Positions 9,166 through 38,084 of a stretch of DNA of 38,435 nucleotides are shown here, piece after piece. Position numbers and translations under genes: made by a program. Numbering within the stretch: position 1 is the stretch's first letter; the number at the start of each line of letters is the position of its first letter. The stretch covers positions 2,488-40,922 of the forward strand of contig CAZANK010000001.1 in assembly GCA_964486235.1 (NCBI GenBank). Reading direction: 5' to 3'. The stretch comes from an uncultured Prolixibacteraceae bacterium. GTDB taxonomy: Bacteria > Bacteroidota > Bacteroidia > Bacteroidales > Prolixibacteraceae. A model generated the notes under the pieces. That model was given only the letters and a program-made list of their open reading frames with translations, was not told where the DNA came from and searched no databases.

Positions 9166-9185
9166 TAATGACAAAGCGTTAAATT

Positions 9186-13367: not shown

Positions 13368-13400
13368 TCGTTTGTAATTCGTAGTTGTTTACCCGGCTAT

Positions 13401-14527: not shown

Positions 14528-14557
14528 TTGGAAGCCTTTTAAGGTATAATTCCAACA

Positions 14558-18075: not shown

Positions 18076-18076
18076 A

Positions 18077-18112
18077 TGAACCGGAAAGTGTTCCAGCACA
18101 GTCCGGTTCTTA
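18077..18112 (+). repeat. Junction repeat copy 2 (TGAACCGGAAAGTGTTCCAGCACAGTCCGGTTC), containing an 8-bp stem GAACCGGA / TCCGGTTC with a 16-nt loop
   Basis: Begins 2 nt after the acylase stop codon. See copy 1. Confidence 0.6.
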
Positions 18113-18155
18113 GTGTTAAATCTTTTGCTAATGTATCATTTAACGATTCAAATTT

Positions 18156-21581: not shown

Positions 21582-21608
21582 ATTATGAAAATTATGAAAA
21601 TTATGAAA
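21582..21608 (+). repeat. Three perfect tandem copies of the 9-mer ATTATGAAA spanning the SusD-like start codon
   Basis: Read directly. It produces three in-frame ATGs (MKIMKIMK...) immediately after the SusC stop at 21579-21581. Confidence 0.85.
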
Positions 21609-23396
21609 CGATATATACCTGTTATTCTTATTATTGGATCGCTCTTCACATGGTCATGTAGTGAAGGCTTCCTTGAAAGGTATCCACTCGATGAGTTAGC
21701 GCCTCAGGATTTTTTCAATTCTCCTGAAGAACTGCAAATCTATGCCAACAGATTTTATGTTCTCCTTCCTGCCCATCAGGGATATTTCAATACATTTTAT
21801 GTTGATGCGAATAGTGATAATCTGGTGCCTGCTGAATTCGACATGAGGCTTGCCGGAACACGTACAGTTCCTTCATCTGTTTCTGCCACTACTGTTAATA
21901 CCCGGTTTTCTATTGTTTATGGTTGGAATTGGGCTGACATTCGGCAGGCAAATTACTTCCTCGAGCATTGCAATAAGGCCACTGGTACACCAGAAGACCT
22001 TAAACAATACATAGGTGAAGTAAGGTTTTTCAGGGCATTCCTTTATTTTGACAAGGTTAAGACTTTTGGGGATGTCCCATGGATCAGTAAAACCACGAAT
22101 ACGACTTCTCCCGAACTATACATTCCTCGGACAAGCCGGAAGGTTGTGACCGATTCCATCATCGCGGATCTGGATATCGCGATAAGTTATTTAAAACCTG
22201 CTGCCCAGGCGAATGCCTTCAGAATAAATAAAGAGGTAGCTATGCTTTTAAAAGCACGCGTTTGTCTTTATGAGGGTACCTGGGAGAAATACCATAGCGG
22301 CACCCCACTTGGGGTGTCCGGTTCCGACGGTTCACAATTCATACAGAAAGCTGCTGAGGTTGCTGATCAACTTATGCAAACAAACGCGCACAGTATTTAC
22401 AAAGGACCTGCCGGACGGGAGTATTGGTCTCTTTTCAACCAGTTGGACTACACCGGGAATCCAGAGGTAATGCTTTGGAAAAAATACGATATAGGACTTC
22501 AGATAACACACAATGTGGCAAGATACATGGCAGGAGGAATTGGTCAAATAGGAATGTCGAAAGGGTTAATAGACAGCTATTTATGTACAGACGGAAAGCC
22601 TATTTCTATTAGTCCGTTGTTCCTTGGCTATGATTCTTTGCTCATGGAGGCAACAAATCGTGACCCCCGGCTCCAGCAATCGGTATTCCTCCCGGGAGAC
22701 GATCAGAGAATCAATGGACCCGGCGGCACACTGAACGTGAAATTCGAAAAACCCACTTTGGATGGGATGGGTGAGTTCCGGAACACCACAGGCTTCGCTA
22801 TTTATAAAGGAGTTAATCCTGATTATTCACAGTCATCAAATGACAATGTCGGTACACAGGGATCTATTATTTTTCGATATGCCGAAGCCTTGCTAATCTA
22901 TGCTGAAGCAAAGGCCGAAATGGGAAATATTACTCAAGCGGATGTCGACAGAACCATCAATCGGCTGCGCGACAGAGTGGGCATGATCCATTTGGATATC
23001 AATAATATCAGCACCGATCCCAACTGGGATTATCCGACCCTCTCTCCGGTCATTAATGAGATCAGGCGGGAACGAAGAGTGGAACTGTCCTGTGAAGGAT
23101 CAAGATGGGATGATCTGGCTCGTTGGAGAGCGCATCACCTCATTGTAGGTAAACGTCTCAAAGGAGCCAAATATACCGGCACAAATCTGGATGGTGCATA
23201 TAAAGATGCTCAGGGAAATCCAAGTATAGTAATCGGAGTAAATCTGTATGTTGATGCCAATGGTTTTATTGATCCCTATCAGAACGTTTTTCCAAATGGA
23301 TTCGGATTCGATCCAAATCGTGATTATTTATCACCTATTCCAAGCGACGAAATCACGTTGAATGACAAACTGGTACAAAATCCAGGTTGGGAATAA
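21585..23396 (+). CDS. SusD/RagB-family nutrient-binding outer-membrane lipoprotein
   Basis: Lipobox FTWSCSE. SusD motifs RINKEVAMLLKARVCLYEGTW, IFRYAEALLIYAEAKAEMG, ERRVELSCEGSRWDDLARW and SPIPSDEITLNDKLVQNPGWE. It starts 3 nt after the SusC-like gene. Confidence 0.92.
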   Translation: MKIMKIMKRYIPVILIIGSLFTWSCSEGFLERYPLDELAPQDFFNSPEELQIYANRFYVLLPAHQGYFNTFYVDANSDNLVPAEFDMRLAGTRTVPSSVSATTVNTRFSIVYGWNWADIRQANYFLEHCNKATGTPEDLKQYIGEVRFFRAFLYFDKVKTFGDVPWISKTTNTTSPELYIPRTSRKVVTDSIIADLDIAISYLKPAAQANAFRINKEVAMLLKARVCLYEGTWEKYHSGTPLGVSGSDGSQFIQKAAEVADQLMQTNAHSIYKGPAGREYWSLFNQLDYTGNPEVMLWKKYDIGLQITHNVARYMAGGIGQIGMSKGLIDSYLCTDGKPISISPLFLGYDSLLMEATNRDPRLQQSVFLPGDDQRINGPGGTLNVKFEKPTLDGMGEFRNTTGFAIYKGVNPDYSQSSNDNVGTQGSIIFRYAEALLIYAEAKAEMGNITQADVDRTINRLRDRVGMIHLDINNISTDPNWDYPTLSPVINEIRRERRVELSCEGSRWDDLARWRAHHLIVGKRLKGAKYTGTNLDGAYKDAQGNPSIVIGVNLYVDANGFIDPYQNVFPNGFGFDPNRDYLSPIPSDEITLNDKLVQNPGWE

Positions 23397-23493: not shown

Positions 23494-25194
23494 ATGTATC
23501 GGAAACATCTTCCTTCGGCTAGATGGTTATGTTTAATCTGTTTAGTCCTTTGCTGTAGTTGTGTAAAAAAAGTGACAATAGATTCTTTGGTCAAGGAGAT
23601 GACCCAAAGAGAAAGTCTTAGTTATTTTCCACGGAATCCTTATGTTCACAAACAATTCAGCAGTTACAATCCGGCATCAAAATCACCTGAAAAAGAGGGT
23701 TGGTTTGAAAACTTCGATATGTCTCATTTCATTCGGGTGGAAGAAGATGCCGGAAGGCGCGAATTTGTGATGCTTGATGCCGATGGGCCGGGTGCAATTG
23801 TCCGATGGTGGATGACCTTTTATAAAGCTCAAAACGGCGTGTTGCGGATTTATGTGGATCATGATTCAATTCCTGTTATTGAGGGATCACCAAACAAGTT
23901 ATTGAGCGGTGACCTTCTGACAAAATCTCCACTCGCGGTATCTGTCCAGGCAGGAGCTGACATTGGGGAAGAAGGACGTGATTACGATCACAATCTCTAT
24001 GTTCCCATACCCTTTGCACGTCATTGCAAAATTACTTACGAATGCGATTCGCTGGTTTTACGCTACGATTATGAGGGCATCAAAGTACCTCAAGGCTATT
24101 ATTCGCCCGATGTGTTTTATAATATTGGGTACCGTGCCTACGCGAAAAACATAACTGTTGAGTCTTCTTCACGCCAGTCACTCAAAGAGGCCGGAACTCT
24201 TTTTGATATAGCTGGTAAATCTTTATTGAACAACCAGGTAAACTCCGTCTCTAACGAGAAATTTGAGAAACTCATTCTGCCGGGAGATTCACTCGTCATT
24301 GAACTCACAGAAGAGAAACATGCCATAAATCAATTGATGGTTGATTTGGAAGCAAACGATATGCAGCAGGCTTTACGTTCTGCATTGTTAAAAGTATCAT
24401 TTGACGGATATCAAACAATTTGGGCTCCCATCGGTGAGTTCTTTGGGACAGGATATAGTCTGAATCCCCATAAAACATGGATGAATCAGAGAGATGAAAA
24501 TGGCAGGATGGAATCTTACTGGGTAATGCCCTTCAGAGAAAAATGTGCACTTACGATCGTCAACCATGGAAATGAAAATATAAAGCTGAAGGGATCGGTA
24601 GGCCTGATACCATATAAATGGACCACAAACAGCATGTATTTCGGAGCCTTTTGGCACGAATACCGGCATCTTAAAACCAGAGACGGGAAGGGTTTGCCTT
24701 TCGACCTGAATTTTATTGACATCAAGGGGAAAGGAGTATATGTGGGCGATCAGGTTACTCTCTTCAACAATACCTATCAGTGGTGGGGCGAAGGCGATGA
24801 GAAAATTTTTGTTGACGGAGAGTCTTTTCCATCCAGTTTTGGAACAGGTTCAGAAGATTATTACGGTTATTCATTTGCGCGGCCAGAATCATTTTCACAT
24901 CCCTTTTTATCGCAGCCGGAAGGAACGGGAAATACAAATTGGGGGATTACCGTTAACATGAGGCATCGCTCTCTTGATGCGATCCCATTTCATACATCAA
25001 TCAGCTCAAATATCGAATTATGGCATTGGGCTAATATCCGTATGAACTACGCACTCACATCTTATTTTTATGTATTGCCCCCTTTTACGATCAATGCCAT
25101 GCCGAACATTGAAAGCATAAGAAATCGGGTTGCAATTAAGAAAGATGATATTAACAACGATGAGAATAGTCCCCGGACTACTTTTACCAAATGA
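23494..25194 (+). CDS. DUF2961 / glycoside hydrolase family 172 protein (lipoprotein)
   Basis: Signal and lipobox CLVLCCSC. DUF2961 motifs DADGPGAIVRWWMTF, YVPIPFARHCKITYE and WWGEGDEKIFVDGESFPSSFGTGSEDYYGYSF. Confidence 0.85.
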   Translation: MYRKHLPSARWLCLICLVLCCSCVKKVTIDSLVKEMTQRESLSYFPRNPYVHKQFSSYNPASKSPEKEGWFENFDMSHFIRVEEDAGRREFVMLDADGPGAIVRWWMTFYKAQNGVLRIYVDHDSIPVIEGSPNKLLSGDLLTKSPLAVSVQAGADIGEEGRDYDHNLYVPIPFARHCKITYECDSLVLRYDYEGIKVPQGYYSPDVFYNIGYRAYAKNITVESSSRQSLKEAGTLFDIAGKSLLNNQVNSVSNEKFEKLILPGDSLVIELTEEKHAINQLMVDLEANDMQQALRSALLKVSFDGYQTIWAPIGEFFGTGYSLNPHKTWMNQRDENGRMESYWVMPFREKCALTIVNHGNENIKLKGSVGLIPYKWTTNSMYFGAFWHEYRHLKTRDGKGLPFDLNFIDIKGKGVYVGDQVTLFNNTYQWWGEGDEKIFVDGESFPSSFGTGSEDYYGYSFARPESFSHPFLSQPEGTGNTNWGITVNMRHRSLDAIPFHTSISSNIELWHWANIRMNYALTSYFYVLPPFTINAMPNIESIRNRVAIKKDDINNDENSPRTTFTK

Positions 25195-26285
25195 CACGAA
25201 ATATGAAAATCTGCAATGCTTTGAGCACAGTAAAATGGGTGGGACTTTTAACATTCATGACAATTGTAAAGTCATGTAATTCTCCGGAAAAATTCTATTC
25301 TGCCGATGACTTTGCCCTTGTTCAGAAGATTGATGCACATTTTCATTATCTAACCATGAATGAGGAATTCCTCAAATTGGCATCAAATCTGAACTTCCAT
25401 TTGCTTTCACCAAATTGGGATGGTGAGTATTCTATAGACGAGCAAATGAAAATTGCCCATAAGATATGGCTTTCCAATCCCAAAGGATTTGCATTTTTCG
25501 GTACTTTTTCGGTTGACAGTTTTGGTCAACCTGAGTTTGCTGACCTTACGATTGCCCGCATCAGGCAATGTTTACAAGGAGGCGCTTCTGGAATAAAAAT
25601 CTGGAAAAACATCGGGATGGTTTTAAAAGACCAGGATGGGAAATTTGTAATGATTGACGACCCGGCTTTCGATCCCGTTTTTACATTTCTCGAAGAGAAT
25701 AACATTCCGGTTCTGGCTCATTTGGGAGAACCAAAAGACTGCTGGCTACCCGAAAGTGAGATGACAGATCCGGGTGACAAAAGCTATTATCGAAACAATC
25801 CTGAATACCACATGTATCTGCATCCCGAAGTTCCTTCTTACGACGATCAGATTACAGCAAGGGACAATATCCTAAAAAAATACCCAAAACTTGATTTTAT
25901 CGGAGCACATCTGGGCAGTCTGGAATGGAATATTGATGAGTTGGCTCAACGTTTTGATATGTTCCCGAATTTCAAGGTTGACATGGCCGCCAGATTATAC
26001 CACCTGCAATATCAGTCTAAAAGCAACAGAGAAAAAGTCCGCAATTTTATGATCAAGTATCAGGACCGGATTTTATATGCCACAGATAATGAGGTACACG
26101 ATATTTCAGGTACGGATACTAAGACAACGATGCGAAATCTTCAACGGGGCTGGATGGCGCAATGGAGCTACCTCGCTACTGATTCAGTTATTAACAATAC
26201 AAAAGGATTAAAACTTCCAAAGGATGTTATTGATAAGATCTATTTCAAAAATGCGAAAAAGTATTTTAATCAAAAACAGAATTAA
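25191..26285 (+). CDS. Amidohydrolase-family (PF04909-like) metal-dependent TIM-barrel hydrolase, lipoprotein
   Basis: Lipobox IVKSCNS. Metal-binding HxH in KIDAHFHY. Later VLAHLGEP, FIGAHLGS and ILYATDN are spaced as in amidohydrolase_2 proteins. The start overlaps the upstream stop (ATGA). Confidence 0.6.
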   Translation: MTRNMKICNALSTVKWVGLLTFMTIVKSCNSPEKFYSADDFALVQKIDAHFHYLTMNEEFLKLASNLNFHLLSPNWDGEYSIDEQMKIAHKIWLSNPKGFAFFGTFSVDSFGQPEFADLTIARIRQCLQGGASGIKIWKNIGMVLKDQDGKFVMIDDPAFDPVFTFLEENNIPVLAHLGEPKDCWLPESEMTDPGDKSYYRNNPEYHMYLHPEVPSYDDQITARDNILKKYPKLDFIGAHLGSLEWNIDELAQRFDMFPNFKVDMAARLYHLQYQSKSNREKVRNFMIKYQDRILYATDNEVHDISGTDTKTTMRNLQRGWMAQWSYLATDSVINNTKGLKLPKDVIDKIYFKNAKKYFNQKQN

Positions 26286-26295
26286 ACTTAAAGAC

Positions 26296-27120
26296 ATGAA
26301 AAAATTATTGCTGATTTCAAGCCTGTTAATACTCTTTCAATGTGTGAAAGGAAACGATGATTTTAACAATGGTTATAATCCATCCGAAAAACTTGTGTTA
26401 AAAGATGTTTCATACGGGGAATTACCGCGACAAAAATTCAACGCTTACCTTCCGGCAAACAGAAATAAAAATACGAAAGCAATCATTCTTATTCATGGAG
26501 GCGGCTGGAAATCAGGAGATAAAAGCGATTTCGATTTATTTGCATCCGCATTTGCCGATTCAGCTATTGCAGCTTTTGCCATAAATTACAGGTATGCCAA
26601 TACAAATGATCGTGTAAGTTATGTTGAAATTTTGAAGGATATTGACAAGGCAATTAGTTGCATCATCGATAGTTCTGTGACTTTTTCCTTTAATCCGAAA
26701 CAAATATGTCTTTTGGGACATAGTGCAGGAGCGCACCTGGCATTACTCTATACTTTTCGTGACAACAAGAAGGGTGTTGTGAATAAAGTTGTTTCATTGG
26801 CAGGCCCAACAGACTTGACCGACCCTCAATTACTCAATATCTCCGGGATAAATGACTTGGTAAACACATTGGTAGGGAATGATTTAGATAAACGTGAAGA
26901 TGCCAGTCCCATAAATTATGCAGGCGAAATTCCCACCTACTTGTATCATGGCAAAGCGGATGAAGTAGTTCCCAGTCAGCAATCCGTTAAATTCTTCGAA
27001 AAAATCAGTAGTCGGAATCCGAGGAATCGTTGCGCCATAATTGAAGGCTGCGGACATGGGTTTGATCTGGCGGAATTCATTAAAATATTAAATGAAACAG
27101 TTGCATTCGTTAAAGAATAG
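26296..27120 (+). CDS. Alpha/beta-hydrolase esterase (HGGGW / GHSAG type), lipoprotein
   Basis: Lipobox ILFQCVK. Oxyanion motif ILIHGGGWKSGDK. Nucleophile elbow LLGHSAGAHLA. C-terminal GCGHGF. The ORF-track start at 26224 overlaps the upstream gene; ATG 26296 gives a proper signal peptide. Confidence 0.8.
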   Translation: MKKLLLISSLLILFQCVKGNDDFNNGYNPSEKLVLKDVSYGELPRQKFNAYLPANRNKNTKAIILIHGGGWKSGDKSDFDLFASAFADSAIAAFAINYRYANTNDRVSYVEILKDIDKAISCIIDSSVTFSFNPKQICLLGHSAGAHLALLYTFRDNKKGVVNKVVSLAGPTDLTDPQLLNISGINDLVNTLVGNDLDKREDASPINYAGEIPTYLYHGKADEVVPSQQSVKFFEKISSRNPRNRCAIIEGCGHGFDLAEFIKILNETVAFVKE

Positions 27121-27169: not shown

Positions 27170-29266
27170 ATGAAAGCAAGATTTTATATCGTTGCATGGA
27201 GCCTGATCGTTACTCTTTCCTGTATGCAACGGGGATTGGCGCAAACCATAACTACCGAGAGCCTGCTAAACGACATGGTTGATTTTGAACGATTGACCCG
27301 TTTGTCCAAAGAAACCTATAAAGCAGTGCAATATTCTTCATACGACCGGAGAAGCACAAAACCAACCGATAATTTCTGGTTTGCCAATGAAGATGGGTTT
27401 GGCAATGAACCAATTCCCGGCTTTGAAAAAGTACTGAAACAACCGGATGCAAATGGAATAGGGGAGTATCTGATATGCGATATTCGAAAGCCAGGTGCCA
27501 TTTTACGCCTTTGGACTGCGCAGATAACCGGTAAAATCCGTTTGTTTTTAGATGATATGACCTCCCCTGTTTTTGAAGGAGATGCCCAGGATTTTTTTTG
27601 GAAAGCAATTGAAAAGTTATCCGACACTCCGGTTCAAATTGATTATGTCAACACCTTCAGGCAATTTGATGCGGTTTATCTCCCCATTCCTTTTGCCAGG
27701 GGATGCCGGATTGAATGGATCGGGGATATTAAAGAAACTCATTTTTATCATGTAGGTCTCCGCGTTTATGACTCCAACGTAAAGGTCGAAACGTTCAATG
27801 TTAAAGAGATCCCTAAATATGTTCAAAAACTGGAGGAAATAAACAGGATTTTAAGGAATCCGAAAGATGGAGTTTCCAATAAAAAGCGAATTATTCAAAC
27901 AAAGGAAATTAGTGTGCCTGTGGCCTCAACAAAAGAATTATTTAACATTACAGGACAACAGGCGGTTGAATATTTCTCCATCAAATTAAAAGCAAATAAT
28001 CCTGAAAATGCACTCCGGAAGAGTCTCTTAAAAATCTGTTTTGATGATTCTTCTGTTCCCCAGATACATGCGCCAATTGGCGATTTTTTTGGAGCAGCTC
28101 CTGGCCTGAATCCATATCAATCACTTCCTTTTTCAGTGGAAACAGATGGTACAATGACTTGCCGGTTTGTTATGCCATTTAAAAATGCTGCGCGCATAGA
28201 AATTGAAAATAATTCGGATGAGAATATTACTGTTTCAGGAGGTCTTGGTACCACAGATTATAAATGGGAGGATGGAAAAAGTATGCATTTCAGGGCACGC
28301 TGGAAAATCAATCATGAATTAACTGCTACGAATATTAACGCGGGTGATAATCGTGCTTCCGATATTCTATACTTGATGGCATCGGGTCAAGGCCGGATTG
28401 TTGGCGCCGCCGCCTATTTATATAATCCCAGCAATGTTCCCACTCCCTGGGGCAGTTGGTGGGGTGAAGGCGATGAAAAAATTTATGTAGATCAGGATAC
28501 CTTTCCTTCATTCTTTGGTACAGGCTCCGAAGATTATTTCAATTACTCATGGTCGTCGGCAAAAATATTTAGTTTCCCGTATTGCGGGCAACCCAGAAAT
28601 GATGGTCCCGGAAACCGTGGTTATGTTTCAAATTTCCGTTGGCATATCCTCGATGATATTCCATTTAAAGATAAAATCGCTTTTTTCATGGAGTTGGGCC
28701 ATCATGGAAATGTTCCCCGTTTTTCGTACGGAAGGATGGTCTGCCTCTATGCCTCACCCGAACTTATTGATGATTATCAGAAAATAACGATTGATGACCT
28801 TCGTGACATTTCCTATCGACCCTGGACCCCGGAGGCATACCTCGGTTCTGCAGGCTTCCGATTCATTCAAGCTGAAATGTTTATTGTTGAAAATAAGACG
28901 ATTAAGGTGGAAAATGGATCGCTGTGGTCAGAAGGAAGCATTGTGATGTGGACTCCGGCAAAAACAGCAGAGAAACTCAAATTCATGATCAATTCCGATA
29001 AAGCCGGCGATAAAACAAATATCGGTTTTACACTTGCCCATAGTCCGAATGGTGGCACAATGGCCATATTCATAAATGGAATGCCGGTAAAGTTTGATGG
29101 CAAAGAAACAGTGAACCTTTTCGAGCCAAATCAGCAGATTTTGGAAAACCATTTTTCAGAATCAATCCAATTACTAAAAGGTAATAATGAAATAATTTTC
29201 GAATCCAGAGATACCGAAATGGGTAAAAAAATAGGAATTGATTTCGTCTGGATGAGAGAGAAATGA
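27170..29266 (+). CDS. DUF2961 / glycoside hydrolase family 172 protein with an extra C-terminal beta-sandwich-like domain of about 150 aa
   Basis: Signal peptide MKARFYIVAWSLIVTLSCMQRGLAQ. DUF2961 motifs KPGAILRLWTAQ, YLPIPFARGCRIEW and WWGEGDEKIYVDQDTFPSFFGTGSEDYFNYSW. It is a paralog of 23494-25194 but about 130 aa longer at the C-terminus. Confidence 0.85.
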   Translation: MKARFYIVAWSLIVTLSCMQRGLAQTITTESLLNDMVDFERLTRLSKETYKAVQYSSYDRRSTKPTDNFWFANEDGFGNEPIPGFEKVLKQPDANGIGEYLICDIRKPGAILRLWTAQITGKIRLFLDDMTSPVFEGDAQDFFWKAIEKLSDTPVQIDYVNTFRQFDAVYLPIPFARGCRIEWIGDIKETHFYHVGLRVYDSNVKVETFNVKEIPKYVQKLEEINRILRNPKDGVSNKKRIIQTKEISVPVASTKELFNITGQQAVEYFSIKLKANNPENALRKSLLKICFDDSSVPQIHAPIGDFFGAAPGLNPYQSLPFSVETDGTMTCRFVMPFKNAARIEIENNSDENITVSGGLGTTDYKWEDGKSMHFRARWKINHELTATNINAGDNRASDILYLMASGQGRIVGAAAYLYNPSNVPTPWGSWWGEGDEKIYVDQDTFPSFFGTGSEDYFNYSWSSAKIFSFPYCGQPRNDGPGNRGYVSNFRWHILDDIPFKDKIAFFMELGHHGNVPRFSYGRMVCLYASPELIDDYQKITIDDLRDISYRPWTPEAYLGSAGFRFIQAEMFIVENKTIKVENGSLWSEGSIVMWTPAKTAEKLKFMINSDKAGDKTNIGFTLAHSPNGGTMAIFINGMPVKFDGKETVNLFEPNQQILENHFSESIQLLKGNNEIIFESRDTEMGKKIGIDFVWMREK

Positions 29267-29300: not shown

Positions 29301-30458
29301 ATGTTGCTAATAAAGAGATATATACAGGAACTTGAGATTTTTCAGGTCAGAAATAGAACAATTCTCTCGAAAGAACGGGTAATCTCCGTAGATGCATTAA
29401 GAGGTTTTGATATGTTTTGGATTATGGGAGGCGATATTGGGTTTCAGGCCCTTGATCATGTTTTCCACAGTAAGCTGTCAGGTTTTGTTAGAACACAATT
29501 TGATCATACTGAATGGTTCGGCTTTCATTTTGAAGACATTATCATGCCACTTTTTCTTTTTATTGTTGGCATTTCAATGGTCTACTCATACAGAAAAAGA
29601 CTCGGTAGTGGTTCCACTGACAAATCGTTGTGGATTCACACAATGAAGAGAGTTGCCCTACTTTGGTTATTAGGTATGGTTGTTCAGGGAAATCTGCTAA
29701 GTTATGACCTCAACCATATTCAATTTTACACAAACACCTTGCAGGCTATTGCAAGCGGTTATCTGATAGCAACCATTTTCATTCTGTATCTGCCGGTCTT
29801 TTATCAGATGCTGGCTACAATTGGTTTAATGATAGTTTATTGGGCAATTCTGGCACTTATTCCAATTGGAGGAACAACAGCCAACGCATATTCTCCTGAT
29901 GGGAATGTGGCAATGTATGTTGAAAAGTTGGTTATGGGGCGTTTTATCGGCTGGGGAACTTATACCTGGATTGTTTCGAGCCTGAATTTTGGGGCGACTG
30001 TCATGGTCGGTGTTTTTGCCGGGTACATGATGCAATCAAATGAGAGTAAGATGAAGAAATTCTGGAATTTCGGGATTCTTGGAATTTCACTGATTATCCT
30101 TGCGTTAATCCTGAATATTTGGCATCCAATAATCAAGAAGATATGGACAAGCTCATTTGTTCTCTTTTCCGGTGGTATCAATTTGCTGATACTTGCAGCT
30201 TTTTACCTGGTGATTGATATCTGGAACGTTCGGAAAGGCACAAAATGGATGATAATCATAGGATCGAATGCCATTTTTGCCTATGTGGCCTGGCATCTGT
30301 TTAGCAACAGTTTTATAGGCATGGCTGAAATCTTTTTGAAAGGTTTAAAACCATGGATTGGAAACTGGTTTGAAGCACTGGGTATTTTTGGCGGTACGCT
30401 GATCTTATACCTCATCCTCAAGTATATGTACAAGAATAAAACTTTCATTAAAATTTAA
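29301..30458 (+). CDS. DUF5009 / HGSNAT-like polytopic membrane acyltransferase (heparan-alpha-glucosaminide N-acetyltransferase-like)
   Basis: The diagnostic N-terminal motif RVISVDALRGFDMFWIMGG is followed by about 10 hydrophobic helices. It has no signal peptide. Size is about 385 aa. Confidence 0.7.
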   Translation: MLLIKRYIQELEIFQVRNRTILSKERVISVDALRGFDMFWIMGGDIGFQALDHVFHSKLSGFVRTQFDHTEWFGFHFEDIIMPLFLFIVGISMVYSYRKRLGSGSTDKSLWIHTMKRVALLWLLGMVVQGNLLSYDLNHIQFYTNTLQAIASGYLIATIFILYLPVFYQMLATIGLMIVYWAILALIPIGGTTANAYSPDGNVAMYVEKLVMGRFIGWGTYTWIVSSLNFGATVMVGVFAGYMMQSNESKMKKFWNFGILGISLIILALILNIWHPIIKKIWTSSFVLFSGGINLLILAAFYLVIDIWNVRKGTKWMIIIGSNAIFAYVAWHLFSNSFIGMAEIFLKGLKPWIGNWFEALGIFGGTLILYLILKYMYKNKTFIKI

Positions 30459-30489
30459 ACCAAAACCGAAATACTAATCTCTGAAAACT

Positions 30490-31959
30490 ATGAATACTAA
30501 TCGCCGGAGTTTTTTTAAAATCGCGGGAGTTGCCAGTGTCAGCATATTTTCCGGGGCCTTATCTTCCTGTGATTCAAATGAAAAAAAAAATCAAACTGGC
30601 TCACTTTTAAACATCGAAGAGGAGGCAAATAAAGCACACGCTCAACGCTTTAACATGAGCGGTTATGCAGCGCCAAAACTAGATGTTGTACGAATTGGAT
30701 TTATCGGACTGGGAATGCGAGGACCTGGCGCAGTTGAACGAATAGCTAATATTGAAGGTGTCGAAATTAAAGCGCTTTGCGATGAACGAATGGATCGGGT
30801 TGAAAGCGCGCAAAAAATTCTCGCCGAACGCGGATTGCCTGAGGCAAAGGCATATGGGGGAAGGAAAGAGGCATGGAAAGAGCTTTGTCGAAGTAATGAA
30901 ATTGACCTTGTTTATATTTGCACACCCTGGCAGCTTCATACTCCAATGGCTGTATTTGCAATGGAAAATGGCAAACATGCCGCTTCTGAAGTTCCCGCAG
31001 CCACAACTCTTGAAGAGGCATGGCTACTGGTCGAAACATCTGAAAAAACAAAAAAGCACTGCATGATGCTTGAAAACTGCTGCTACGACTTTTTCGAACT
31101 GCTGACTTTAAATATGGCACGACAAGGTTTTTTTGGAGAACTGACCCATGTTGAGGGAGCTTATATTCACAACCTCGCTGATCTGAATTTCAGTAAAAAA
31201 GGCTATACCGAAATGTGGCGGTTAAAGCACAACCAGCATCGCAATGGCAATCTTTACCCTACTCATGGTCTCGGACCAGTTTGTCAGGCGTTGAACATCA
31301 ATCGCGGCGATAAGATGGAATACCTGACGTCCATGTCGACAAATGATTTCCAATTGGCAAAAATGGCTGATAATCTGGCAAAGGAGGATGCTTTCTACAA
31401 AGAATTTGCAACGACAAACTATCGCGGGAATATGAACACAACCCTTGTCCGGACTGAGAAAGGCAAGACAATAATGATTCAGCACGACACCACTTCTCCA
31501 AGACCATATTCGCGTATCCACCTCATTTGCGGAACCAAGGGAGTAGCCATCAAGTATCCTGAGCCCGGAAGAATCGCGACAGGTCACGAATGGTTCGATG
31601 ATGCGAAAATGGCTGAGATTCAGAAACAGTATACTCCTGAAATTGTGAAGCGGGTAGGTGAGATGGCAAAGAAAATTGGTGGCCACGGCGGTATGGATTT
31701 TATGATGGACTGGCGCCTTATTGATTGCCTTCGCAACGGACTGCCGCTTGACCAGGATGTTTACGACGCGGCATTATGGAGTTGTATTGCACCATTAAGC
31801 GAATGGTCTGTTGCCAATCGCTCGAATTCGATACAGGTTCCGGACTTTACCTGCGGATCCTTTAAATCAAATCTACAGGTTGATATCAGTCTGTCTCAAG
31901 GCGGAAATACTGGAGTCAGGGCCATAACGAGCAGTTCGGGGAGCCAATTAAAAGTATAA
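30490..31959 (+). CDS. Gfo/Idh/MocA-fold NAD-dependent enzyme with a Tat signal, GH109-like (alpha-N-acetylgalactosaminidase family)
   Basis: Twin-arginine signal plus lipobox-like RRSFFKIAGVASVSIFSGALSSC. Rossmann motif VRIGFIGLGMRG. YICTPWQLHTPMAVFAMENGKHAASEVPAATTLEEAWLLVETSEKTKKHCMMLENCCY...EGAYIHNL matches the GH109 pattern. Confidence 0.7.
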   Translation: MNTNRRSFFKIAGVASVSIFSGALSSCDSNEKKNQTGSLLNIEEEANKAHAQRFNMSGYAAPKLDVVRIGFIGLGMRGPGAVERIANIEGVEIKALCDERMDRVESAQKILAERGLPEAKAYGGRKEAWKELCRSNEIDLVYICTPWQLHTPMAVFAMENGKHAASEVPAATTLEEAWLLVETSEKTKKHCMMLENCCYDFFELLTLNMARQGFFGELTHVEGAYIHNLADLNFSKKGYTEMWRLKHNQHRNGNLYPTHGLGPVCQALNINRGDKMEYLTSMSTNDFQLAKMADNLAKEDAFYKEFATTNYRGNMNTTLVRTEKGKTIMIQHDTTSPRPYSRIHLICGTKGVAIKYPEPGRIATGHEWFDDAKMAEIQKQYTPEIVKRVGEMAKKIGGHGGMDFMMDWRLIDCLRNGLPLDQDVYDAALWSCIAPLSEWSVANRSNSIQVPDFTCGSFKSNLQVDISLSQGGNTGVRAITSSSGSQLKV

Positions 31960-32040
31960 AATGGTGATATGGATTACCCTCAAGATCGTATCAAAACAAA
32001 TTTTGACGTGTCAAATACATTAATAAATCAATTGTTAAAG

Positions 32041-34560
32041 ATGGAACACCTTAATCATAAGCATTTAGTAATAACTATAATTCTGAGCTTATCCTTGTTT
32101 CTTTGTTCGGCTAAAGAAAAGAGCATTAATCCCCGGGATCATGCTTTTAACGGGTATTACTCAGGAAAGTATCTGGATCGTGTTGCTTTCCCAATTGGTG
32201 GCATTGGCGCCGGAATGTTTTGTATGGATGGCACAGGATCACTTTCTCATTTGTCAGTAAAGCATAGGCCTGAATTATTCAATGAGCCTGTCTGTTATGC
32301 AGCAATATGCGTCAAAGGAAGGGAAAATGGGGCAAAAGTTTTGGAAGCACAGGTTCCTGAATGGAAACTGTATGGTTCAGCAGGATCGACAATCGGCGCC
32401 CTGGGAAAGTCATATGGTCTTCCTCGGTTTGAGAATAGTCGCTTTTTACCAAGGTTTCCATTCGCCACGCTTGAACTTCAGGATAAAGATATTCCGTTTG
32501 AGGTTGAAGTAACGGGTTGGAGCCCCTTCATTCCGGGTGATGAAGATAATTCAAGTTTGCCGGGCGGTGCCATGGAATATTCTTTCAGAAACAATACAAA
32601 AGAAGAAATTGAAGCGGTTTTTTCCTGGAACTCAAGGAATATTATTACCGAATGGGTTGGACGTATTGTAGAAATAAAGAATGGTTTTACTTTAACGGGC
32701 GATCCACCCGATTCCGGGAACACTGGCTTGTCAGTCTTTATAAATGACAACGATGCCGTGGTGGACTATTGCTGGTTCCGGGGTGAGTGGTTTGATCCCC
32801 ATATGATTCTTTGGAAGAACATTGAAAATGGTAACGTTGTTTCTAATCGTCCGGTTGATTCACCCGCGCCTGGCGCATCAATATATGTCCCGTTTAGACT
32901 TAAACCTGGCGAAAGTAAAAGCATCGTTGTCAACTTCTGCTGGTATCTGCCCCAAACGAACCTGTCAATAGGGAATGTGCCAGGCACGGAAGAGAAGCTC
33001 CCTCCCTATAAACCCTGGTATACGGCTCGTTTTGATAATCTGGATGAAGTCAATAAGTACTGGATGACGAATTATTCAGACCTGAAGCAAAAAAGCGAAC
33101 TTTTTCGTGACGCGTTTTTCTCCTCAACACTTCCTCCCGAAGTCATTGAAGCAGTTGCTGCAAACCTGGCAATTCTGAAATCTCCAACCATTTTGCGGCA
33201 GTTTGACGGACGGCTTTGGGCTTGGGAAGGATGCGATGATAACGAAGGCAGTTGTCATGGCAGTTGCACACACGTTTGGAATTATGCCCAGGCGATGCCC
33301 CATCTCTTTCCGGGCCTTGAAAGAACGTTTCGAGAAACGGAACTAATGGTCAGTCAAAATGATAAAGGGCATCAGAATTTCAGGGTGAATCTGCCAATTT
33401 CTACGCCTCCGCACGATTTTCATTCAGCAGCCGACGGTCAGTTGGGCGGAATAATGAAAGTATACCGGGAATGGAGGATCAGCGGAGACACTGAATGGAT
33501 GAAAGGTCTGTTTCCACTTGTTAAAAAAAGTATGGATTATTGCATTGAGACCTGGGACCCGGATCAGAAGGGTTATCTCGAAGAACCCCACCACAATACA
33601 TACGATATCGAATTCTGGGGACCTGATGGGATGTGTACCAGCTTTTACCTGGGCGCCCTCACTGCATTTAATGAAATGAGCAAAGCAGTAGATTCTCCAT
33701 ACGGAGAGTATGAAAACCTGCTTGCTAAGGGTAAGGTATTTACTGAATCGGAGCTGTTTGACGGAGAATATTTCATACAAAAAGTAAAATGGGAGGGATT
33801 GCATTCCCCAAGTCCTGTTGTGGCTGCAAAGAGCAGTTACAGAACCAGCTATTCTGAAGAAGCGTTGAAGCTGTTAAATGAAGAAGGCCCTAAATATCAG
33901 TATGGGAAAGGGTGCTTGTCGGATGGTATTTTAGGAATGTGGATGGCTTCTGTTTGTGGTTTGCCTGAAATTATCGATCAGGAAAAAGTAACCAGTCATC
34001 TTGCTGCAGTTTATAAAAACAACTTTAAATCAAACCTTATTGATCATGCCAATCCCCAACGGCCAACTTATGCCGCAGGAAGAGATGGAGGTTTATTACT
34101 ATGTACCTGGCCTAAAGGAGGTAGATTGTCTCTTCCTTTCATCTACAGTAACGAGGTTTGGACCGGAATAGAATACCAGGTTGCAAGTCATCTCATGTTT
34201 CATGGGGAGGTTGAAAAAGGACTGGATATTGTCCGTACCTGCCGGAAACGATATGATGGACGTGTACGAAACCCGTTCAATGAATACGAATGTGGAAGCT
34301 GGTATGCACGCGCCATGTCGAGTTATGCACTTCTCGAAGGACTTACCGGTGTCCGCTATGATGCCGTAGACCGCACTTTATTTATCGATTCAAAGATTGG
34401 AGATTTTAAAAGTTTCCTTTCCGCTGAAACCGGCTTTGCCAATGTTGGACTCAAAAACGGGAAGCCCTTTCTCGAAGCTGTATATGGAACTATTGATATC
34501 CAAAAAGTCATCGTTTCGGGCGTCGAAAAACAATTGATCCATCAATCGTTATCAAAGTAA
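32041..34560 (+). CDS. Glycoside hydrolase family 116 (GBA2-type) protein
   Basis: Signal peptide MEHLNHKHLVITIILSLSLFLCSAKE. GH116 N-terminal domain motif FPIGGIGAGMFCMDGTGSLSHLSV. Catalytic-domain (DUF608) motif WAWEGCDDNEGSCHGSCTHVWNYAQAMPHLFPGLERTFRETE. HNTYDIEFWGPDGMCTSFYLGAL. The ORF-track start at 31969 adds 24 residues ahead of the signal peptide. Confidence 0.82.
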   Translation: MEHLNHKHLVITIILSLSLFLCSAKEKSINPRDHAFNGYYSGKYLDRVAFPIGGIGAGMFCMDGTGSLSHLSVKHRPELFNEPVCYAAICVKGRENGAKVLEAQVPEWKLYGSAGSTIGALGKSYGLPRFENSRFLPRFPFATLELQDKDIPFEVEVTGWSPFIPGDEDNSSLPGGAMEYSFRNNTKEEIEAVFSWNSRNIITEWVGRIVEIKNGFTLTGDPPDSGNTGLSVFINDNDAVVDYCWFRGEWFDPHMILWKNIENGNVVSNRPVDSPAPGASIYVPFRLKPGESKSIVVNFCWYLPQTNLSIGNVPGTEEKLPPYKPWYTARFDNLDEVNKYWMTNYSDLKQKSELFRDAFFSSTLPPEVIEAVAANLAILKSPTILRQFDGRLWAWEGCDDNEGSCHGSCTHVWNYAQAMPHLFPGLERTFRETELMVSQNDKGHQNFRVNLPISTPPHDFHSAADGQLGGIMKVYREWRISGDTEWMKGLFPLVKKSMDYCIETWDPDQKGYLEEPHHNTYDIEFWGPDGMCTSFYLGALTAFNEMSKAVDSPYGEYENLLAKGKVFTESELFDGEYFIQKVKWEGLHSPSPVVAAKSSYRTSYSEEALKLLNEEGPKYQYGKGCLSDGILGMWMASVCGLPEIIDQEKVTSHLAAVYKNNFKSNLIDHANPQRPTYAAGRDGGLLLCTWPKGGRLSLPFIYSNEVWTGIEYQVASHLMFHGEVEKGLDIVRTCRKRYDGRVRNPFNEYECGSWYARAMSSYALLEGLTGVRYDAVDRTLFIDSKIGDFKSFLSAETGFANVGLKNGKPFLEAVYGTIDIQKVIVSGVEKQLIHQSLSK

Positions 34561-34570: not shown

Positions 34571-35830
34571 ATGAAAATCAATCATTCTTTTCTTTCAATT
34601 TTTTTCCTTTTCTTATCATCAACTACAGGAAGCGCCCAGGTAAACAACCTGAAAATCAGTGAAGATACTGACGTGATTGTAATGAAGAAAGTAGCTGACC
34701 ATATACTTTCCAATACCACTTATGATTTTATTATTCCTGGCGATGGAACAATTCTGAAAACTGTGAATTCTTCGAATTATAAAGAGTCAATTGCTTTACG
34801 AAGCCCTTATAATACCTGGAACTATTGGAACGGGGTATTGAGTATTGCAATGATCAGGATAGCAGAGAGTTTAGATGATAAAAGATATCAGAAATTCGCG
34901 ATTAAGAATTATGAATTCTCATTCGACAACCTCCCATTTTTTAAAAGCAGGTATAAAGGACAGGATAAATGGATCTATCCGTTCGGACAGGCTATCGTAA
35001 CCAAAGAGTTAGATGATTGCGGCGCTATGGGAGCCGGCCTGATAGAGGTCAACCAAATTAAACCACGAGAAGAATACAACGATTATCTGTTGAATGCTGC
35101 CTTGCATATACTTAACGGGCAAGACCGGCTTGATGACAAAACGCTGGTACGTAAATTTCCTTACGAGATGACCTTGTGGGCCGATGATCTGTACATGAGC
35201 ATTGTGTTTCTTTCAAGAATGGGTAAATGGACGGGTGACAATAAGTATTTTGATGATGCCATACTTCAGGTAGAAAACTTCACGAAGTATTTATTCAATC
35301 CAAACACGGCGCTTTATTACCATAGCTGGTATAGCGACCTTAAAACCAATGGTGTTGCGCATTGGGGCAGATGCAATGGTTGGGTTATGATGGCCCAGGT
35401 TGAATTATTGGATTATTTGCCAACGAATTATCCCAATCGGGAAAAGTTACTGAAAATACTTTATCAGCAGATTTTAGGAATTTCCCGATACCAGGATATC
35501 TCGGGAATGTGGCATCAATTGATTGACAAAAACGATTCTTACCTCGAAACCTCATCAACGGCCATGTTTACGTATAGCATTGCAAAAGCTGTAAACAATG
35601 GTTGGATTGACAAAAGGTATATTTCAGTGGCCATTGAAGCTTGGGACGGTTTGAAGAAAAATATCAATGAGGATGGACTGGTCAGGAACATCTGTGAGGG
35701 GACAGGTATCGAGAATGACCTCCTTTACTATTATAAAAGGCCAACTCCGCTGAATGATATTCATGGATTGGGGGCAATTTTATTGGCTGGCAATGAGATC
35801 ATTAAGTTTAAAAGAGAAAATAATAAATAA
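34571..35830 (+). CDS. GH105/GH88-family unsaturated glycuronyl (rhamnogalacturonyl/glucuronyl) hydrolase
   Basis: Signal peptide FLFLSSTTGSAQ. YteR-type motifs LWADDLYMSIVFLSRMG, HWGRCNGWVMMAQVELLDYLP, GMWHQLIDKNDSYLETSSTAMFTYSIAKAVNNGWI and HGLGAILLAG. Confidence 0.85.
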   Translation: MKINHSFLSIFFLFLSSTTGSAQVNNLKISEDTDVIVMKKVADHILSNTTYDFIIPGDGTILKTVNSSNYKESIALRSPYNTWNYWNGVLSIAMIRIAESLDDKRYQKFAIKNYEFSFDNLPFFKSRYKGQDKWIYPFGQAIVTKELDDCGAMGAGLIEVNQIKPREEYNDYLLNAALHILNGQDRLDDKTLVRKFPYEMTLWADDLYMSIVFLSRMGKWTGDNKYFDDAILQVENFTKYLFNPNTALYYHSWYSDLKTNGVAHWGRCNGWVMMAQVELLDYLPTNYPNREKLLKILYQQILGISRYQDISGMWHQLIDKNDSYLETSSTAMFTYSIAKAVNNGWIDKRYISVAIEAWDGLKKNINEDGLVRNICEGTGIENDLLYYYKRPTPLNDIHGLGAILLAGNEIIKFKRENNK

Positions 35831-35831
35831 A

Positions 35832-38084
35832 ATGAAGAGGAAATTAATTCCGGCAATCTGCTTTTTCTTTTTATTGTCATTTGTCTTCAATAGCCTAAAG
35901 GTACGGGCAGGTGATGTAACAATTATTGATTCAAGGCATTACAGTACTGTACTTGGCGAAATGCGTAACTATCGCATATTTTTGCCTCCCGGCTATTCTG
36001 AAAACCCTCAGAAAAGATACCCGGTCATCTATTTTTTGCACGGATGGTCTCAGCGCTATTTTGGCGCAGGTCCGATTTATTCAGATCCTTTTGAAAAAGG
36101 CAGTGATAACAATGGCGACAACATTGCGAATTTCGTTTCAAAGCATGATGTTATTGTTGTAAAATCAGATGGATACAACCGAAACCCTGATGAAGAATAC
36201 TACGTGCGACCTTATAACGTTGGGAAAAAGAGCGAGGTCGAAACTTACCGGCAATTCCCGATCTATTACCCTGAGTTCGTAAATTATATTGATGAAACCT
36301 ATCTTACCATTGCCGACAGGGAACACAGGGCAATTTCAGGTCTTTCGATGGGGGGGTTTATGACTTTTTGGATTGGTGGAAAATATCCGCAGTTATTTTC
36401 TGCCGCCGGAAATTTCTGTGGTTCTACGGAATTTTTTGTTGGTCCCCAAAGCTTCCCTGTGGAGTACCACCACAAAGATATGTATAAGAATTACGGAGGA
36501 ATGAATATCCGGTTAAATTATGGTGATAAGGACTTTATCCTCAATTATCATGAGGAAGTAAATAAAGTGTGGACACAGGTAATGGATCATTATGAATTTA
36601 AAATTTATGATGCGGCACATTCTACCTGCGGACTTGGTGAAATGTTTAATTTTTGCATGAAAACCTTTGAGAATCCTCCGGGAAAACCTGAAAAATGGGA
36701 TCATATTGATGTATATCCTGAATTCTCTGTATGGGATTATAATATCTATTCCGACCGAAATGTTCCGGGTTTTACTGTCCTCGAAAATGTAGATAAAAGA
36801 GGGTTCAAATGCGCGGTAAGGGAGTTTCTTCCCGATGGTGAATTGTTGCCTTTTGTGAACCTGACGGTAACAACACCACCAATATATGAAAAGAATCAAT
36901 CGTACATTATTAACGATATTGACGCCAAAAGCTTAGAATCCATGCAAAAAACAATCCTGAGCGACGATTCAGGAAGATTGAAGATCAGTATAAATGGCAG
37001 TCTTCACGAAATTGGAATCAATAAAAAAGACGATAAACCCAACATTTGTGTCGCTTCGTTCGAAATTGAAAATATGGCTTGGGCAATAACCGGGAAAGAT
37101 GTCAGGCTCTCCATAAAACTACTGAATAAAGGATTGGCGACTGCGAAAAACATCAGCGCCAGGATTGCAGCAACACGAAATACTACGATCATTCCTGAAA
37201 GTGAAGCATCATTTGGGAATATTGATGTTAATGAATTGAAGACCTGTCAGATTCCATATGTATTCCACGTGCAAGCTGATCATGTTGAAATGGTACAATT
37301 CAGGATAACAATTCAGGATGAGAAAAAAAATCAATGGATTGAATTATTTGAGGTTCCTGTTAAACGGGATTTGCTGGAAATGGATTGTGTGATCGCCGAT
37401 GGCAAAGTATTTACCGTCGCGAAAGCGGGCGACGATACCGAAACAATCTTTTTGGGAGAAGGAAATGGTGATGGTGTAGCAAATCCGGGTGAGAGTATTA
37501 TGATACTCGTAAAAGATAACGATACCTACCGCAGAACCAGTTTATATTTTTCAGATAAGTACCTAAATCCATTTGGGATAAACCACAGAATATCAGATGA
37601 CTGGTTTAGTTATGATTATGTGGGCGCTTCATGCAAATTTTCCAAACCATTAATTGCCTCCGATTGCCCTGAAAATCATATCATTGAATTATCCACTGAA
37701 CACTGGCTCCCAGACAAGCTTTTTCATGTTGTTAAACAAGGGAAAGTTAAGATTAACGTGAAAGGAAAGGATAGTACACCACCCAAACTTAGGTGGGTGC
37801 AAATCCCTGGTAATAATATTGTCCAGGCAAAGCTATACGATGGTTCAAAAATTCTGTCGGTGAAAGCCAAACTAATCCTATGGGTGAAGGATAAACCTAC
37901 GGAATATCTTGAATTTAAGTTGAATGACAATGGTTTGAATGGTGATCTGGTTAAGGCCGATAATGTATTTAGCGCGAAAATTCCTGAACAGAAACTTGGT
38001 TTTTACAGGGTGGTAATAGAGGCGGAAGATTCATTTGGAAATACATTAATTGAAGAGGCCCGTGATAAATATTTGTTGCACTGA
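35832..38084 (+). CDS. PF00756-type (esterase D / CE1-like) serine esterase fused to a C-terminal region of about 460 aa with unknown function
   Basis: Signal peptide MKRKLIPAICFFFLLSFVFNSLKVRA. YRIFLPPGYSENPQKRYPVIYFLHGW. Nucleophile elbow GLSMGGF. The ATG at 35832 lies 1 nt after the upstream stop. The ORF-track start at 35754 overlaps the GH105 gene. Confidence 0.78.
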   Translation: MKRKLIPAICFFFLLSFVFNSLKVRAGDVTIIDSRHYSTVLGEMRNYRIFLPPGYSENPQKRYPVIYFLHGWSQRYFGAGPIYSDPFEKGSDNNGDNIANFVSKHDVIVVKSDGYNRNPDEEYYVRPYNVGKKSEVETYRQFPIYYPEFVNYIDETYLTIADREHRAISGLSMGGFMTFWIGGKYPQLFSAAGNFCGSTEFFVGPQSFPVEYHHKDMYKNYGGMNIRLNYGDKDFILNYHEEVNKVWTQVMDHYEFKIYDAAHSTCGLGEMFNFCMKTFENPPGKPEKWDHIDVYPEFSVWDYNIYSDRNVPGFTVLENVDKRGFKCAVREFLPDGELLPFVNLTVTTPPIYEKNQSYIINDIDAKSLESMQKTILSDDSGRLKISINGSLHEIGINKKDDKPNICVASFEIENMAWAITGKDVRLSIKLLNKGLATAKNISARIAATRNTTIIPESEASFGNIDVNELKTCQIPYVFHVQADHVEMVQFRITIQDEKKNQWIELFEVPVKRDLLEMDCVIADGKVFTVAKAGDDTETIFLGEGNGDGVANPGESIMILVKDNDTYRRTSLYFSDKYLNPFGINHRISDDWFSYDYVGASCKFSKPLIASDCPENHIIELSTEHWLPDKLFHVVKQGKVKINVKGKDSTPPKLRWVQIPGNNIVQAKLYDGSKILSVKAKLILWVKDKPTEYLEFKLNDNGLNGDLVKADNVFSAKIPEQKLGFYRVVIEAEDSFGNTLIEEARDKYLLH

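Follow-up and report, generated by a model that had tools for sequence, protein, structure and literature searches.

A predicted NagX/HGSNAT-type acetyltransferase and a GH109 glycosidase encoded side by side in a D-arabinan-type utilisation locus of an uncultured Prolixibacteraceae bacterium

In a 38,435-nucleotide stretch of DNA from an uncultured Prolixibacteraceae bacterium (contig CAZANK010000001.1; hereafter "the window", meaning this whole stretch), a gene for a predicted transmembrane acetyltransferase of the NagX/HGSNAT family lies directly upstream of a gene for a GH109 glycosidase, inside a metagenomic polysaccharide utilisation locus (PUL) of the Bacteroidota type. A sequence-only reading of this DNA had proposed that the membrane protein acetylates a free amino sugar so that the GH109 enzyme can then cleave it. 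This acetylate-then-cleave idea was supported in part: the family assignments, the catalytic residues and the D-arabinan context agree with it, but the co-conservation of the two genes does not. Our preferred reading, a tentative one at slightly less than even chances, is that the two genes form an accessory amino-sugar module, only loosely coupled, within a D-arabinan-type locus.

The membrane protein and the GH109 enzyme

Both open reading frames (ORFs), 29301-30458 (385 amino acids, aa) and 30490-31959 (489 aa) on the + strand, are real. The public annotation of three independent metagenome contigs lists identical 385-aa and 489-aa products, and it agrees with the earlier description of two adjacent same-strand genes 31 nt apart, whose coordinates and spacing are exact. 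The features of the pair are as follows.

29301..30458, + strand: NagX/HGSNAT-family transmembrane acyltransferase (TmAT fold), 385 aa, from NCBIfam, a family profile and Foldseek
29391..29432, + strand: motif DALRGFDMFWIMGG, residues 31-44, which holds the DxxR acyl-CoA motif (D31, R34) of transmembrane helix 1 (TMH1); D31 and R34 invariant in alignments A1-A3
29505..29537, + strand: codons of His69 (29505-29507) to Asp79 (29535-29537), matching the HGSNAT dyad H297-D307 in HMMER alignments to 8vkj
30459..30489, no strand: intergenic spacer between the NagX-type and GH109 genes, 31 nt
30490..31959, + strand: GH109 NAD-dependent glycosidase, probable lipoprotein exported by the twin-arginine (Tat) pathway, 489 aa, from Pfam and PDB matches
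30502..30570, + strand: twin-arginine motif RRSFFK (residues 5-10) to lipobox Cys27; N-terminus MNTNRRSFFK
30706..30723, + strand: Rossmann GxGxxG (G73-G78), NAD binding
31162..31686, + strand: catalytic Tyr225 (31162-31164), His259 (31264-31266) and His399 in the GGHGG loop (31684-31686), aligned to AmGH109A

The two genes belong to a same-strand run with short gaps: 34 nt between the upstream glycoside hydrolase gene GH172b and the NagX-type gene, 31 nt between the pair, and 9 nt between GH109 and the downstream GH116 gene. No promoter-like or terminator-like signals above shuffled expectation were found across these four genes, and the 31-nt spacer has no terminator-like site. Minus-strand ORFs (99-154 aa) inside the GH109 gene, at window 30679-31686, are unsupported and most likely spurious.

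The membrane protein has 6533 homologues at E<=1e-5. It matched the NCBIfam model NagX_SO_3504 (NF046061, transmembrane glucosamine N-acetyltransferase NagX) over its full length (1.3e-56), with 192.3 bits against an equivalog cut-off of 480 bits. Because the match is full-length but its score is below this cut-off, we regard the protein as a relative of NagX and not as an equivalog. The Pfam matches to Acyl_transf_3 (23.5 bits) and HGSNAT_cat (19.2 bits) were both under the gathering cut-offs. A profile built from 22 diverse homologues matched human HGSNAT with an E value of 1.1e-36, from TM2 to the C-terminus (HGSNAT ~295-663). We modelled the 385-aa protein with AF2 (pLDDT 75.8, pTM 0.78) on alignment A2, which is shallower than the diverse alignment A1. 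Foldseek with this model gave 15 significant matches, all to HGSNAT chains (E 5e-8 to 5e-6, TMq 0.67-0.70), while transporter folds appeared only at E>0.1 and a TM of about 0.2. The earlier label "DUF5009/HGSNAT-like" therefore stands for its second half, on profile, fold and NCBIfam, but not for its first, as Pfam DUF5009 (PF16401) gave no match to the protein even at E<=5.

For the mapping of residues, we took the catalytic dyad of HGSNAT from PMC11199644 and the TmAT motifs, with the role of DxxR in the TmAT superfamily, from PMC12423673. DxxR was placed by motif and the other acyl-CoA residues by alignment. The motif named in the sequence-only reading is present at residues 31-44. The residues that are retained, with the HGSNAT position first, are these.

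Catalytic dyad H297-D307: H69-D79, kept
TMH1 DxxR, D272/R275: D31/R34, kept
TMH2 FxxxxG, F313/G318: F85/G90, kept
TMH3 Arg, R345: R117, kept
TMH6 Gly, G514: G237, kept
N606: N323, invariant or nearly so
TMH9 Tyr, Y611: Y328, kept

H69 and D79 were invariant in alignments A1-A3, down to homologues of 28% identity, and D31, R34, F85, G90, R117, G237, N323 and Y328 were invariant or nearly invariant in the same alignments. Judged by its sequence, the membrane protein is a bacterial acyltransferase of the HGSNAT/NagX branch with intact catalytic and acyl-CoA machinery.

Compared with HGSNAT, the window protein has the same 10-helix TmAT fold. HGSNAT, however, has 663 aa with an N-terminal luminal domain and an extra helix, both lacking in the 385-aa window protein; and HGSNAT is lysosomal, whereas the window protein is bacterial, predicted to face the periplasm, and encoded within a polysaccharide utilisation locus. 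NagX of the Shewanella SO_3504 type is closer in architecture, being short (309-395 aa) with the conserved catalytic His, as is the window protein. Its genetic context is different: NagX sits in chitin/N-acetylglucosamine (GlcNAc) operons with NagA, NagK and NagP, whereas the window gene lies between GH172 and GH109, and no nagA, nagK or nagP was found in the window or in the orthologous loci.

A different function has been given to one distant member of the same membrane-protein family, TfMurT of Tannerella forsythia (Bacteroidota), which was called a transporter from genetics. NagX is distantly related to this putative N-acetylmuramic acid transporter (PMC9007349), and the NagX-type protein is the only polytopic inner-membrane protein encoded in the window locus. 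It might thus be an inner-membrane transporter like TfMurT, importing an amino sugar or an arabino-oligosaccharide, with GH109 as an independent enzyme. A major facilitator superfamily (MFS) homologue was indeed present in two orthologous loci without NagX (L165, L169) and in none with NagX, but most other NagX-less loci showed no homologue of that MFS protein, and we rejected this complementary distribution as too weak to support transport. Against transport, the window protein keeps the acetyltransferase His-Asp dyad and the acyl-CoA residues, which are invariant down to 28% identity, and its fold search yielded only HGSNAT chains. We consider a transporter function very improbable.

The GH109 protein matched Pfam Glyco_hydro_109_C (PF21252, 1.3e-46) and GFO_IDH_MocA (PF01408, 4.9e-15). 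Its nearest solved GH109 relatives are AmGH109A of Akkermansia (6t2b, 4.8e-96) and NagA of Elizabethkingia (2ixa, 1e-68). Like them, it has an NAD-binding Rossmann domain and a GH109 C-terminal domain, a catalytic Tyr and His, the GGHGG His and a secretion signal. Tyr225, His259 and His399 align exactly with Tyr226, His259 and His404 (GGHGG) of AmGH109A, for which catalytic roles are cited in PMC10755693. The active-site segments are near-identical to those of AmGH109A, a characterised N-acetylgalactosaminidase. A plain oxidoreductase, which would lack the NAD-binding and catalytic residues, was rejected, since the GH109 C-terminal domain, GxGxxG and all three Tyr/His/His residues are present; glycoside 3-dehydrogenase models matched weakly (26-34 bits against cut-offs of 650-750). 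The RRSFFK motif, the GH109_C domain, the NAD motif and the three catalytic residues together bear out the proposal of a Tat-exported GH109-like enzyme. The NRRxF motif was present in all GH109 orthologues inspected but the lipobox Cys was not universal, so the enzyme is predicted to be periplasmic and sometimes lipid-anchored. The active site of the acetyltransferase should face the same compartment. The substrates of characterised GH109 enzymes are blood-group A and mucin glycans, whereas the window GH109 is encoded in a probable D-arabinofuranan locus.

Distribution of the two genes and their coupling

Loci were collected around three seeds, 80 for the membrane protein, 80 for GH109 and 133 for GH116 (individual loci are labelled with L and a number), and all window proteins were mapped onto them. 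Distinct contigs were counted, with the window included; all relatives were metagenome-assembled. An uncultured Bacteroidales clade shared one architecture, in the order SusC/D, GH172a, Amidohydro_2, GH172b, NagX, GH109 and GH116, in which NagX and GH109 were each present or absent as follows.

NagX present, GH109 present: 13 distinct loci, always adjacent, NagX then GH109
NagX absent, GH109 present: 8 distinct loci, L081 among them with a deletion scar
NagX present, GH109 absent: 3 distinct loci

The subset seeded on GH116 is unbiased to either gene. It contained four loci with both genes, three with NagX only, four with GH109 only and one with neither; thus no positive association between NagX and GH109 was seen. 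L081 has the GH109 orthologue closest to that of the window (83% identity). Its 410-nt spacer (about 9592-10000) between GH172b and GH109 retains coding sequence for residues 1-35 and 305-385 of NagX. This scar indicates that NagX was lost by internal deletion while GH109 was kept. Absences may rarely be assembly artefacts, but the junctions were clean and recurred in independent samples. The expectation that the pair would be co-conserved was therefore largely not borne out.

Outside the clade, a further 77 loci with ExoMA2-like GH116 from many phyla had neither gene. About 70 GH109 homologues (62-71% identity) were without NagX, except in L112 and L113, two unrelated loci in which GH109 and Amidohydro_2 are accompanied by a remote member of the family with 28% identity and an intact dyad. 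NagX homologues of 57-66% identity were located between GH32, GH29 and GH141 genes or beside corrinoid methyltransferase genes, with no GH109. For the wider NagX family, 160 Pfam families were found among 118 immediate neighbours and GH109_C was not in the 25 commonest, so genome-neighbourhood statistics, which had been suggested as a check on the pairing, do not make GH109 a usual neighbour. From this distribution, NagX-type acetyltransferases emerge as mobile accessory genes that occur in several different utilisation loci.

Two of these other contexts can be described further. NagX homologues in L012, L014, L015, L016 and L017 (57-62% identity) were flanked by RACo corrinoid-activation genes (L016 was outside the individual Pfam scan), and that in L012 was also flanked by a methanol-cobalamin methyltransferase (MtaB) gene, a non-glycan context. 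In a second clade of about 34% identity, from Bacteroidales and Rikenellaceae (L046-L049, L052, L058, L061, L064), the NagX gene immediately precedes GH88, a family that the window locus also encodes, and GH106 and GH5 come next. A heparan-sulfate-like context for this clade, with GH88 and an alpha-N-acetylglucosaminidase, was considered and rejected, the neighbours being GH88, GH106 and GH5. One member of the clade (34-35% identity), in L049, keeps the DPEG motif of HGSNAT, with the equivalent of E499, unlike the window protein.

The distribution bears most directly on a strict relay. In such a relay, the acetyltransferase would N-acetylate a terminal alpha-linked galactosamine (GalN) at O-2 of branched arabinofuranose (Araf) on imported arabinan oligosaccharides, GH109 would then remove the N-acetylgalactosamine, and GH172 and GH116 would finish the backbone, as a bacterial copy of the lysosomal sequence from HGSNAT to alpha-N-acetylglucosaminidase. 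Arabinan of slow-growing mycobacteria does carry non-acetylated alpha-GalN and succinyl groups at O-2 of branched Araf (PMC7502851), so GalN is a chemically reasonable substrate, and two reports on D-arabinan degradation (PMC10115798, PMC10509167) name no enzyme for the GalN substituent. HGSNAT acts on simple glycosides as well as on the polymer end, MU-beta-GlcN being a substrate (PMC11199644). The 31-nt spacing within one operon-like run, the NagX-then-GH109 order in 13 of the 13 loci with both genes, the targeting of GH109 to the periplasm, and the recurrence of a TmAT protein with GH109 in L112 and L113 all agree with a relay. However, under a relay both genes should be retained or both dropped, and a lone gene should be useless, yet eight loci have GH109 only and three NagX only, the unbiased counts show no association, and L081 dropped NagX but retained GH109. 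The homologues of 57-66% identity beside fucosidase or corrinoid-methyltransferase genes have no GH109, and the luminal domain of HGSNAT has no counterpart in the bacterial protein. The relay survives only if the partner is supplied from elsewhere in the genome. We regard the strict relay, including its last steps on the backbone, as rather doubtful.

As genes that were not kept or lost together, NagX and GH109 are better explained as two individually useful accessory functions, which is the loosely coupled module that we prefer. Cytoplasmic acetyl-CoA would thread into the pore of the membrane protein (D31/R34, F85, R117, Y328), and the His69-Asp79 dyad at the periplasmic mouth would deprotonate the amine of a hexosamine, which would take the acetyl group. 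A non-acetylated hexosamine in the periplasm, free and possibly also terminal, would be converted in this way to its N-acetyl form, as proposed for NagX. GH109, exported folded with NAD+ through the Tat pathway, would remove alpha-linked N-acetylhexosamine in a sequence of C3 oxidation, elimination, hydration and reduction that uses Tyr225, His259 and His399, and it would clear N-acetylhexosamine caps independently of the acetyltransferase. The analysis shows that the genes are real, which families they belong to, their catalytic residues, the export signal, the type of locus and the distribution; the acetyl donor and acceptor, the identity of the sugar (GalN or glucosamine, GlcN) and the order of the steps are what we infer here. 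As HGSNAT accepts simple glycosides, one enzyme could serve both the free and the terminal sugar, and to this extent the relay and the loosely coupled module overlap.

The two genes might also have nothing to do with each other. GH109 could have another job, on a different alpha- or beta-linked sugar or in a redox step on arabinose products together with Amidohydro_2, and the acetyltransferase could be an unrelated passenger with a housekeeping role in the envelope or in amino-sugar metabolism. Bacteroidota commonly have GH109 homologues of 62-71% identity with no NagX, GH172 or GH116 nearby, Amidohydro_2 travels with GH109 both in this locus and in L112 and L113, and the neighbours of the NagX family are heterogeneous, all of which would fit such a case. 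On the other side, the active-site segments of GH109 are near-identical to those of AmGH109A, and both amino-sugar-related genes were inserted at exactly one site, between GH172b and GH116 of a D-arabinan-type PUL, which is unlikely to be a coincidence. We think that unrelated functions are improbable.

Several observations weigh against the loosely coupled amino-sugar module. At the active site, HGSNAT R372, which binds the glucosamine 6-OH, is replaced by Q141, and E499, which binds the 3-OH, by T222; with the sugar-holding residues replaced, the acceptor is left undefined. The oxyanion residue N286 of HGSNAT has no clear equivalent: TMH1 was left unaligned by HMMER, and an ungapped register gives D45, which is conserved in close orthologues only. 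The comparison with the HGSNAT site that had been suggested thus upheld the catalytic His-Asp and the acyl-CoA residues but not the binding of glucosamine. For the family, NagX is supported by genetic data only (PMC9007349), and the bacterial members have no known biochemical activity; none of the DUF5009 proteins has been experimentally tested according to PMC12423673. For the locus, cytoplasmic N-acetylhexosamine catabolic genes were not found among the window proteins with Pfam and NCBIfam, and the assignment of the polymer derives from homology to two characterised arabinofuranosidase families. In addition, ExoMA2-like GH116 proteins of 52-61% identity (L213-L287) are distributed across Verrucomicrobiota, Planctomycetota, Acidobacteriota, Chloroflexota and others, most of these loci without a detected GH172 homologue nearby. 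Their catalytic and specificity residues were invariant in a sample. An enzyme known solely from the breakdown of mycobacterial arabinan would have been expected to be less widespread.

The surrounding locus and its likely polymer

The remaining genes of the locus are listed below.

13895..23396, + strand: extracytoplasmic function (ECF) sigma factor, FecR anti-sigma factor, penicillin-amidase-like N-terminal nucleophile (Ntn) hydrolase, SusC and SusD; regulatory and uptake part
23494..25194, + strand: GH172 "a", from Pfam; public call starts at 23572
25191..26285, + strand: exported Amidohydro_2 lipoprotein, a core gene of the locus, from Pfam (3.8e-11), with lipoprotein signal and HxH motif
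26224..27120, + strand: BD-FAE type alpha/beta esterase, from Pfam
27170..29266, + strand: GH172 (DUF2961) "b", 698 aa, directly upstream of NagX, from Pfam (1.3e-59)
31969..34560, + strand: GH116 of the ExoMA2 (exo-beta-D-arabinofuranosidase) subfamily, 9 nt downstream of GH109, from PDB 8ic6 (2.6e-102)
34571..35830, + strand: GH88-family hydrolase, from Pfam (1.1e-78)
35754..38084, + strand: PF00756 "putative esterase" protein; public call starts at 35832

In a PDB search, GH116 matched 8ic6 (ExoMA2 of Microbacterium arabinogalactanolyticum) with 2.6e-102, and the only other match was a glucosylceramidase with 1e-07. In ExoMA2, E431 and D557 are the nucleophile and acid/base, and H446 and R483 are said to set the specificity for arabinofuranose (PMC10509167). 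The corresponding residues of the window protein, E420, D546, H435 and R472, are invariant in homologues. GH172b matched GH172 structures in the PDB that include DG02479 of Dysgonomonas gadei and ExoMA1, and the solved relatives of both GH172 proteins include D. gadei and M. arabinogalactanolyticum enzymes. The two window GH172 proteins are candidate exo-alpha-D-arabinofuranosidases, in a family that also includes fructofuranosidases. No D-arabinose catabolic genes were found in the window itself. The orthologous locus L165 continues into a LacI regulator, a fucose/D-arabinose isomerase and the MFS transporter, and L161 continues into a class II aldolase and an FGGY kinase. These genes mirror the isomerase and kinase included in the characterised D-arabinan clusters (PMC10115798, PMC10509167). 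With the ExoMA2 match, the two GH172 genes and the D-arabinose genes of the orthologous loci, the D-arabinan context that had been suggested from GH172 and GH116 is strongly supported, and the locus is best read, from homology, as a D-arabinofuranan PUL. The cell-wall arabinan of Mycobacteriales is the best-known candidate for the polymer. The two esterases of the locus would fit an ester-decorated arabinan.

PUL42 of D. gadei (PMC10115798) and the M. arabinogalactanolyticum system (PMC10509167) likewise combine GH172 with ExoMA2-type GH116. Unlike the window locus, the reports on them mention neither GH109 nor an acetyltransferase. A further difference is the GH183 (DUF4185) endo-arabinanase of these clusters, for which Pfam gave no match among the 22 window ORFs scanned. 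D. gadei genes 02469 and 02470 were considered as possible counterparts of the NagX/GH109 pair; 02469 appears in a proteomics supplement as an uncharacterised 416-aa protein, and PUL42 was not among the loci recovered by the capped scans seeded on GH116.

Some other features of the locus deserve mention. The Amidohydro_2 gene (window 25191-26285) is conserved across the orthologous loci, and its product had no match in a PDB search. It also accompanies GH109 and the distant HGSNAT-family protein in L112 (603-1670), which includes GH31, and in L113 (12569-13669), which includes an SGNH esterase and an APH-family kinase. Amidohydro_2, GH109 and the HGSNAT-family protein may form a three-gene functional unit, in which Amidohydro_2 might be a de-N-acylase, a desuccinylase or a lactonase. 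The penicillin-amidase/PvdQ-like Ntn hydrolase (window 15754-18075, Pfam 1e-128) is encoded between the anti-sigma gene and SusC, and it recurs near GH172a in L085 and L166. Such an N-deacylase is odd for a glycan locus, and it could produce free amines.

The GH88 gene is missing from most orthologous loci. In many of them (L160 at 12592-13770, L001, L007, L018, L164, L169) a third, short GH172 gene (~390 aa) follows GH116 at the place where the window has GH88; the products of these genes are 70-74% identical to each other. Upstream, at window 2534-13367, there is a second SusC/SusD locus. Its products include proteins with DUF4959/DUF5000/DUF5126 and DUF4998 and an enzyme weakly resembling GH95, and it also has a 161-aa ORF without annotation; a 396-aa ORF (window 56-1246), likewise unannotated, precedes the locus.

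The mechanical ORF starts at 23494, 25191, 26224, 31969 and 35754 are probably too far upstream. The public calls start at 23572 for GH172a, 25203 for the amidohydrolase and 35832 for the esterase; for GH116 and BD-FAE, starting at an internal Met codon gives a better signal peptide. The overlaps at 26224-26285 and 35754-35830 are probably due to mis-set starts, of which the public gene call confirms the second only.

Known parts of the idea and what it would mean

Acetylation before hydrolysis is textbook logic for lysosomal heparan sulfate. The idea of a bacterial transmembrane transacetylase has also been published, for NagX, which was proposed from fitness data as a hexosamine N-acetyltransferase for free glucosamine (Price et al. 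2022, PMC9007349), and both window proteins belong to known families. Our literature search found no biochemical study of NagX, no report of a NagX/HGSNAT-type gene next to GH109 in a PUL, none pairing GH109 with HGSNAT or with mycobacterial arabinogalactan, and no enzyme assigned to the GalN substituent of arabinogalactan.

The boldest claim that could be made is that of a bacterial equivalent of the HGSNAT relay in a PUL, in which a periplasm-facing enzyme would spend cytoplasmic acetyl-CoA on the alpha-GalN caps at branch points of mycobacterial-type D-arabinan, making the substrate of GH109, after which GH172 and GH116 would finish. We consider this full chain unlikely, and the way the genes are distributed counts against its core. 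If it were true, an acetyl-CoA-spending step of a biosynthetic type would act across the inner membrane as part of bacterial extracellular glycan breakdown. This would be the first acetylate-to-degrade step in bacterial glycan foraging, with the first enzymes for the removal of GalN from arabinogalactan and the first biochemical function for the large bacterial NagX/DUF5009 branch, and it might yield tools for dissecting mycobacterial cell walls. If it were false, the distribution data would still correct the annotation of genes that are usually labelled "predicted acyltransferase" or "hypothetical". The pair provides two concrete, clonable candidates for the removal of non-acetylated GalN from mycobacterial arabinan, and with them a way to test an unsettled detail of how mycobacterial cell walls are turned over.

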